Assembly (NCBI RefSeq): GCF_000026545.1
Contig: NC_011601.1
DNA from: Escherichia coli O127:H6 str. E2348/69
GTDB taxonomy: Bacteria; Pseudomonadota; Gammaproteobacteria; Enterobacterales; Enterobacteriaceae
DNA: 64,000 nt
Reading direction: 5' to 3' (one strand)
Shown: positions 18,645 through 18,652 of the stretch, piece after piece
Layout: each line of letters opens with the position of its first letter
How positions within the stretch are numbered: position 1 is the stretch's first letter
The notes under the pieces: model-generated
Database searches by the model: none
Seen by the model: only the letters and a program-made list of their open reading frames with translations
What the model was told of the DNA's origin: nothing
Position numbers and translations under genes: made by a program

Positions 18645-18652
<8 letters not shown>
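18122..18652 (+). CDS. kefF: KefC-ancillary quinone oxidoreductase KefF
   Basis: 176 aa [21 protein letters not shown]..., flavodoxin-like. Confidence 0.95.

Follow-up and report, generated by a model that had tools for sequence, protein, structure and literature searches.

In the 64,000-nt stretch of Escherichia coli DNA analyzed here (the window), kefC was predicted to start within the last codons of kefF. Does kefC begin there, and is its translation coupled to that of kefF across the overlap?

The kefF-kefC junction and the two proteins

The sequence was read from position 17900 to position 18900 of the window. Around the junction, it runs ...GGCAGGAGGCACATCATGGATAGCCATACG... (as a longer stretch, ...TGGCAGGAGGCACATCATGGATAGCCATACG...), with the A of the kefC ATG at 18645. 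The start codon of kefC occupies 18645-18647 and the TAG stop codon of kefF occupies 18650-18652; the 3' end of kefF and the 5' end of kefC have exactly the octamer ATGGATAG in common (18645-18652, plus strand), an overlap of 8 nt (−8) that also contains the last glycine codon of kefF, GGA (18647-18649). Read in the frame of kefF, CAT CAT GGA TAG gives H-H-G-stop, and the protein ends with ...EAHHG; read in the frame of kefC, ATG GAT AGC CAT gives M-D-S-H. A Shine-Dalgarno (SD) sequence for kefC, AGGAGG, lies at 18633-18638 on the plus strand, within the kefF codons for W-Q-E-A and with a spacer of 6 nt to the ATG.

A 2.6-kb query showed 100% identity to E. coli O127:H6 E2348/69; among 5,426 complete genomes of E. 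coli, 5,425 gave a match. RefSeq annotates kefF at 18122-18652 and kefC at 18645-20507 (window coordinates) in the identical genome NZ_LT827011.1, and in K-12 MG1655 (b0046/b0047), kefF (47246-47776) and kefC (47769-49631) have an 8-nt overlap as in the window. Thus, the original prediction that the ATG of kefC overlaps the last codons and the TAG of kefF is exact in the sequence, in RefSeq and in the K-12 annotation. The overlap itself is already known from the reference annotation and from published work: the overlapping pairs tabulated in the supplement to Huber et al. 2023 (PMC10666635) include the entry "NGHB#46 −8 CMPLX yes kefF/kefC." An 80-nt query spanning only the junction (18606-18685) matched 5,393 genomes, compared with 5,425 for the 2.6-kb query; the shortfall of 32 genomes probably reflects the 28-nt word requirement of megablast, although the junction may be disrupted in some strains. 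The 2.6-kb query also matched four plasmid locations in total, and kefF-kefC with the −8 junction is found on the 404-kb E. coli plasmid pMTY18781-1 (NZ_AP023206.1, 146079-148464).

kefF (18122-18652, plus strand) is supported by ORF, Pfam, NCBIfam and RefSeq data and encodes a 176-aa FMN quinone oxidoreductase, the ancillary activator of KefC. It scored 265.3 bits with the NCBIfam KefF equivalog model NF002044 (cutoff, 210 bits) and matched Pfam Flavodoxin_2 with an E value of 5e-44. An assignment as KefG was rejected, since the score with the KefG model was 150.9 bits, below its cutoff of 240 bits. kefC (18645-20507, plus strand; Pfam, NCBIfam and PDB) encodes a 620-aa glutathione-gated K+/H+ antiporter of the CPA2 type with an RCK/KTN domain. 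It scored 1161.3 bits with the KefC equivalog model NF002924 (cutoff, 752 bits), residues 1 to 619 aligning with model positions 2 to 622; the KefB model gave 641.7 bits, below its cutoff of 804 bits, and KefB was rejected as well. The Pfam architecture is Na_H_Exchanger plus TrkA_N, the CPA2 model TIGR00932 is matched, and the sequence agrees with PDB 8bxg (residues 1 to 561) apart from two visible substitutions. KefC had been described as a channel, which is wrong: it is a CPA2 K+/H+ antiporter according to the EcoCyc product name, Gulati et al. 2024 and TIGR00932. KefF and KefC had also been called stoichiometric partners. The evidence for this is loose: fused to the KefC-CTD, KefF is dimeric in the crystal and in solution, but free KefF binds KefC weakly, no stable complex arose from the purified KefF and KefC, and about 10% activity is left in vivo when KefC is on its own (Gulati et al. 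2024).

The start codon of kefC

The longest ORF in the kefC frame, as called mechanically, extends from TTG 18549 to 20507 (652 aa), and this upstream start had been named as the alternative to ATG 18645. If kefC started at TTG 18549 (or at GTG 18573), KefC would have a 32-residue N-terminal extension, the true overlap with kefF would be 104 nt, and the 8-nt overlap would be an artefact of annotation. Indeed, no stop interrupts the kefC frame of E. coli between 18549 and the ATG, and the open stretch 5' of the start is 37 codons long in K-12 as well as in AP025685. The latter sequence (AP025685.1, GCA_022846635.1) is labelled Salmonella enterica, a species label that looks doubtful; its KefF shares only 77% identity with that of E. 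coli, and the gene 3' of its kefC belongs to the LysE family and is not folA.

We compared the kefF loci of Klebsiella, AP025685, Erwinia, Serratia, Pseudomonas, Rouxiella, Tatumella and Franconibacter together with the most divergent E. coli junctions. The comparative data contradict the upstream start: in six genera, the kefC frame is stopped 7 to 28 codons upstream of the start (7 codons in Franconibacter, 8 in Klebsiella, 15 in Serratia, 18 in Erwinia and Tatumella and 28 in Rouxiella), and Klebsiella and Erwinia are without any alternative start upstream in this frame. In nine enterobacterial genera, KefC begins at the codon corresponding to ATG 18645 with MD(S/N)(H/Q)..., and a conserved LIYLG motif comes after it; the N terminus in Pseudomonas is METHS. 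The KefC equivalog model and the N termini of the homologs begin at MDSH, and no Pfam family matched the 32-codon upstream extension.

The frame under selection was determined from substitutions pooled over four 176-aa non-E. coli orthologs, each compared with the window; Klebsiella, which has a one-codon indel near the end of kefF, was excluded. Over the 96 nt 5' of the ATG, 44, 22 and 65 substitutions fell on kefF codon positions 1, 2 and 3 (p = 2.5e-5), kefF position 3 being position 2 of the kefC frame. The substitutions 5' of the ATG thus track the kefF frame. In the 150 nt downstream, there were 16, 5 and 113 substitutions at kefC codon positions 1, 2 and 3, i.e., 113 of 134 at position 3 (p = 4.5e-35). 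Since the periodicity peaks at kefF position 3 upstream and at kefC position 3 downstream, the selected frame switches at the junction.

The chains of the KefC cryo-EM constructs in PDB 8bxg, 8by2 and 9emb start with MDSHTLIQ, and the 561-residue construct shows that a protein beginning with the Met of ATG 18645 folds into the solved transporter, although the native N terminus is not established by it. kefC is absent from the TRAINSPOTTER N-terminomics supplements and from the acid-stress Ribo-seq supplements, and the literature searched contained neither start-site profiling nor N-terminal data on native KefC. Taken together, the choice of 18645 is backed by the N termini of orthologues, the stops in the upstream frame, the substitution periodicity and the equivalog model. 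On these comparative grounds, a start of kefC at ATG 18645 is well supported, and the longest-ORF start at 18549 is an artefact. Stops in the orthologous frames, substitution periodicity, HMM alignment and the missing family match rule out 18549 and 18573 as starts, which leaves an upstream start with next to no probability, and the open stretch 18549-18644 (plus strand) is a mechanical ORF extension that is non-coding in the kefC frame.

The value of this result is one of quality control, in that 18645 is confirmed over the longest-ORF start. Longest-ORF tracks overextend genes whose ribosome-binding site (RBS) sits in the upstream gene, and folA is a second case in the window: the mechanical ORF (20564-21178) begins at ATG 20564 and has 204 aa, whereas the annotated dihydrofolate reductase (DHFR) start is at 20699 (159 aa). 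Between folA and apaH, the window has a chromosomal ccdA/ccdB toxin-antitoxin pair (21264-21814), where K-12 has a 77-bp gap without a gene. The 3' ends of ccdB and apaH have a convergent overlap of 4 nt (21811-21814).

Conservation of the overlap and translational coupling

The near-zero distance between stop and start is shown to be deeply conserved in the kefF-kefC pair. The junction sequence [A/G]TGGATA[G/A] is kept in nine enterobacterial genera, and the −8 spacing was found in E. coli (five strains, including those with the most divergent junctions), Klebsiella, Franconibacter, Erwinia, Tatumella, Rouxiella, Serratia and AP025685. In Pseudomonas, the spacing is +1 (TGA-G-ATG), and in the paralogous pair kefG/kefB, it is −1 (TGATG). 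Among 189 genomes, genes of the KefF/MdaB family located 5' of genes of the KefB family (COG2249@COG0475) have a median spacing of −1, with quartiles of −8 and +1 (PMC10666635). The 8-nt overlap is dual coding: the last codon of KefF, GGA (Gly), provides the G of the kefC start codon and the GA of the Asp2 codon of KefC, and the stop codon goes with residue 3 of KefC, TAG with Ser3 (AGY) and TAA with Asn3 (AAT). Where the start is GTG, as in Erwinia and Franconibacter, the second-last residue of KefF is Arg (CGT). Since the spacing in Pseudomonas is +1, its METHS N terminus is free of this dual-coding constraint.

The octamer by itself is not special. The bare motif ATGNNTAG has 12 copies in the window where 21 are expected; it is rarer than expected, which rules it out as a statistically special motif. 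Only one of the 12 copies, that of kefF/kefC, is located at a gene junction. What lies above chance is the context, i.e., a 176-codon Flavodoxin_2 ORF closed by the TAG and a 620-codon CPA2 ORF opened by the ATG, together with the conservation of the junction across genera and the rarity of AGGAGG-N6-ATG in the window. There are two instances of this arrangement in 64 kb (0.27 expected), and both are annotated starts, kefC and sgrT. The second one (52715-52729) is the start of sgrT (52727) and lies inside the SgrS small RNA (52706-52932; Rfam RF00534, 221.8 bits). Seven of the 42 same-strand neighbor pairs in the window overlap (−1, −1, −4, −4, −8, −17 and −25), and kefF/kefC is the only −8 pair among the 42. 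In the thi ABC transporter genes (47568-50819), thiP/thiQ overlap by 17 nt (48250-48266) and thiB/thiP by 25 nt (49836-49860), unusually long same-strand overlaps compared with the typical −1, −4 or −8.

Are the two genes also connected in translation? kefF and kefC are in the same operon according to a review, and in a consensus scan, which is weak evidence, neither a strong promoter directly 5' of kefC nor a convincing terminator separating the two genes was seen. Subunits of heteromeric complexes are 4.5-fold overrepresented among E. coli pairs spaced by −8 to +10, and this range is taken as predictive of termination-reinitiation (Huber et al. 2023). With a spacing of −8 nt, the co-oriented neighbors kefF and kefC fall within this range for pairs of the termination-reinitiation class. 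Since the spacing is inside the predictive range and its tightness is conserved, we infer that translation of kefF and kefC is probably coupled, at least in part. Ribosomes ending kefF at UAG 18650-18652 would be released about 5 nt past the AUG of kefC and beside a strong SD, and initiation at kefC would be favored locally, by termination-reinitiation or by local re-recruitment. KefC synthesis would thereby be tied to KefF synthesis on one mRNA. The strong SD probably permits some independent initiation too, and coupling is thus likely to be partial, not obligatory. No paper combining kefC and "translational coupling" and no experiment on the kefF/kefC pair was found in the literature searched.

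If the overlap were functionally neutral, kefC would be translated essentially independently from its own SD, the 8-nt overlap would be a matter of genome compaction, and KefF and KefC levels would be coordinated by cotranscription only. This explanation is less probable but has to be taken seriously. An SD that is perfect (AGGAGG) and optimally spaced is able to support de novo initiation, KefC is made in functional form without KefF (in the cryo-EM constructs and, with the residual activity mentioned above, in vivo), no RNA structure occluding the RBS was detected (see below), so that the RBS would be accessible without upstream translation, and 69.6% of the E. coli pairs spaced by −8 to +10 are not complex subunits (Huber et al. 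2023). However, the spacing is kept within −8 to +1 (quartiles) across the 189 genomes and in both paralogous pairs despite the cost of dual coding, by which the last Gly and the stop of KefF constrain residues 2 and 3 of KefC. Moreover, an SD-like core is present 6 to 9 nt 5' of the kefC start in seven of nine genera, but Serratia and AP025685 keep the −8 spacing with a degenerate SD only (GGGAAG), with which independent initiation should be weak. The spacing retained at this cost, and retained even where the SD has degenerated, plausibly argues for coupling.

Coupling could also result from unfolding of RNA, if a hairpin hid the RBS of kefC until it was melted by ribosomes on the last part of kefF. 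In the minimum free energy (MFE) fold of the E. coli junction, some of the SD does pair with downstream sequence. However, the 121-nt junction folds with −36.6 kcal/mol and shuffled sequences average −37.25 kcal/mol (z = 0.18), 108 of the 200 shuffles being as stable or more so, the MFE fold has an ensemble frequency of 0.016, RNAalifold found no conserved pairs (0) across eight genera, and no Rfam family matched at the junction. The shuffle controls and the RNAalifold result speak against an occluding hairpin, and coupling by this route is very improbable. Elsewhere in the window, Rfam gathering-score matches were obtained for the ES003 sRNA 5' of carA (463-515), naRNA4 between djlA and rluA (29630-29709), a TPP riboswitch 5' of thiB (50850-50949) and the leu operon leader (57691-57840). 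Since RNA unfolding is unsupported, two routes to kefC initiation are left, termination-linked local reinitiation and SD-driven independent initiation.

If partial coupling by termination-linked reinitiation is assumed, the geometry of the overlap might have a further consequence. The efficiency of reinitiation falls steeply with distance and is lower at −8 than at −4 or −1 (Huber et al. 2023). For this reason, the −8 phase-1 overlap could conceivably set a ratio, with KefC synthesized at a fixed fraction below KefF and a weakly binding activator in excess; this is an unlikely reading. On the same speculative basis, kefG/kefB, with its spacing of −1, might have a different ratio of ancillary protein to transporter. 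Equally doubtful is that it is for this ratio that Enterobacterales keep −8 at the cost of dual coding (Gly and stop of KefF versus Asp2-Ser/Asn3 of KefC).

Comparison with known overlapping gene pairs

The junction is an operon overlap of the textbook type between genes whose products act together in electrophile-triggered K+ efflux. Coupling, if proven, would be a minor addition to what is known about the setting of the KefF:KefC ratio and would leave the understanding of the system unchanged; ratio setting by the −8 geometry, if true, would be of modest interest.

The window is from the enteropathogenic strain (EPEC) E2348/69, and its KefC is a few substitutions away from the K-12-derived PDB sequence. 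In E. coli K-12, kefF (yabF) and kefC have the same lengths (531 and 1863 nt), the same overlap ATGGATAG and AGGAGG 6 nt upstream, and within the 30 nt 5' of the start, the single difference is a synonymous change from GCA to GCC in the spacer between SD and ATG. The window differs from K-12 at the ara locus as well. araC and yabI are adjacent in K-12, whereas here a block of five genes lies between them (41100-46506), coding for a ribokinase, a DHDPS-family protein and the tripartite tricarboxylate transporter TctC/B/A; homology breaks at about 41106, and AraC has 281 aa, without the last 11 residues of the K-12 protein (EKVNDVAVKLS).

The closest relative of the arrangement is kefG (yheR)-kefB of E. 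coli (b3351/b3350). Like kefF-kefC, it has a Flavodoxin_2 ancillary gene directly 5' of a gene for a CPA2 antiporter, an overlap of stop and start, and AGGAGG with a 6-nt spacer inside the upstream gene. Unlike kefF-kefC, it overlaps by −1 (TGATG) instead of −8, and the N terminus of KefB is MEGSDF...; moreover, kefG/kefB is listed as "CMPLX not" by Huber et al. 2023, whereas kefF/kefC is listed as "CMPLX yes."

The −8 overlap (NTGNNTGA) is one of three enriched overlap motifs according to a 2025 J Bacteriol review (PMC12548453). kefF/kefC resembles the generic −8 pairs of this type (Huber et al. 2019, 2023; J Bacteriol 2025) in the same-strand, phase-1 overlap of 8 nt, in the RBS inside the upstream gene and in products that form a complex, and termination-reinitiation coupling has been proposed for such pairs. 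Coupling has been measured in other pairs, for example, with hyfI, ynbE and menH reporters, whereas for kefF/kefC it is deduced from the spacing. The pair also differs from the generic −8 type in the stop codon of its upstream gene, which is TAG or TAA in kefF instead of TGA.
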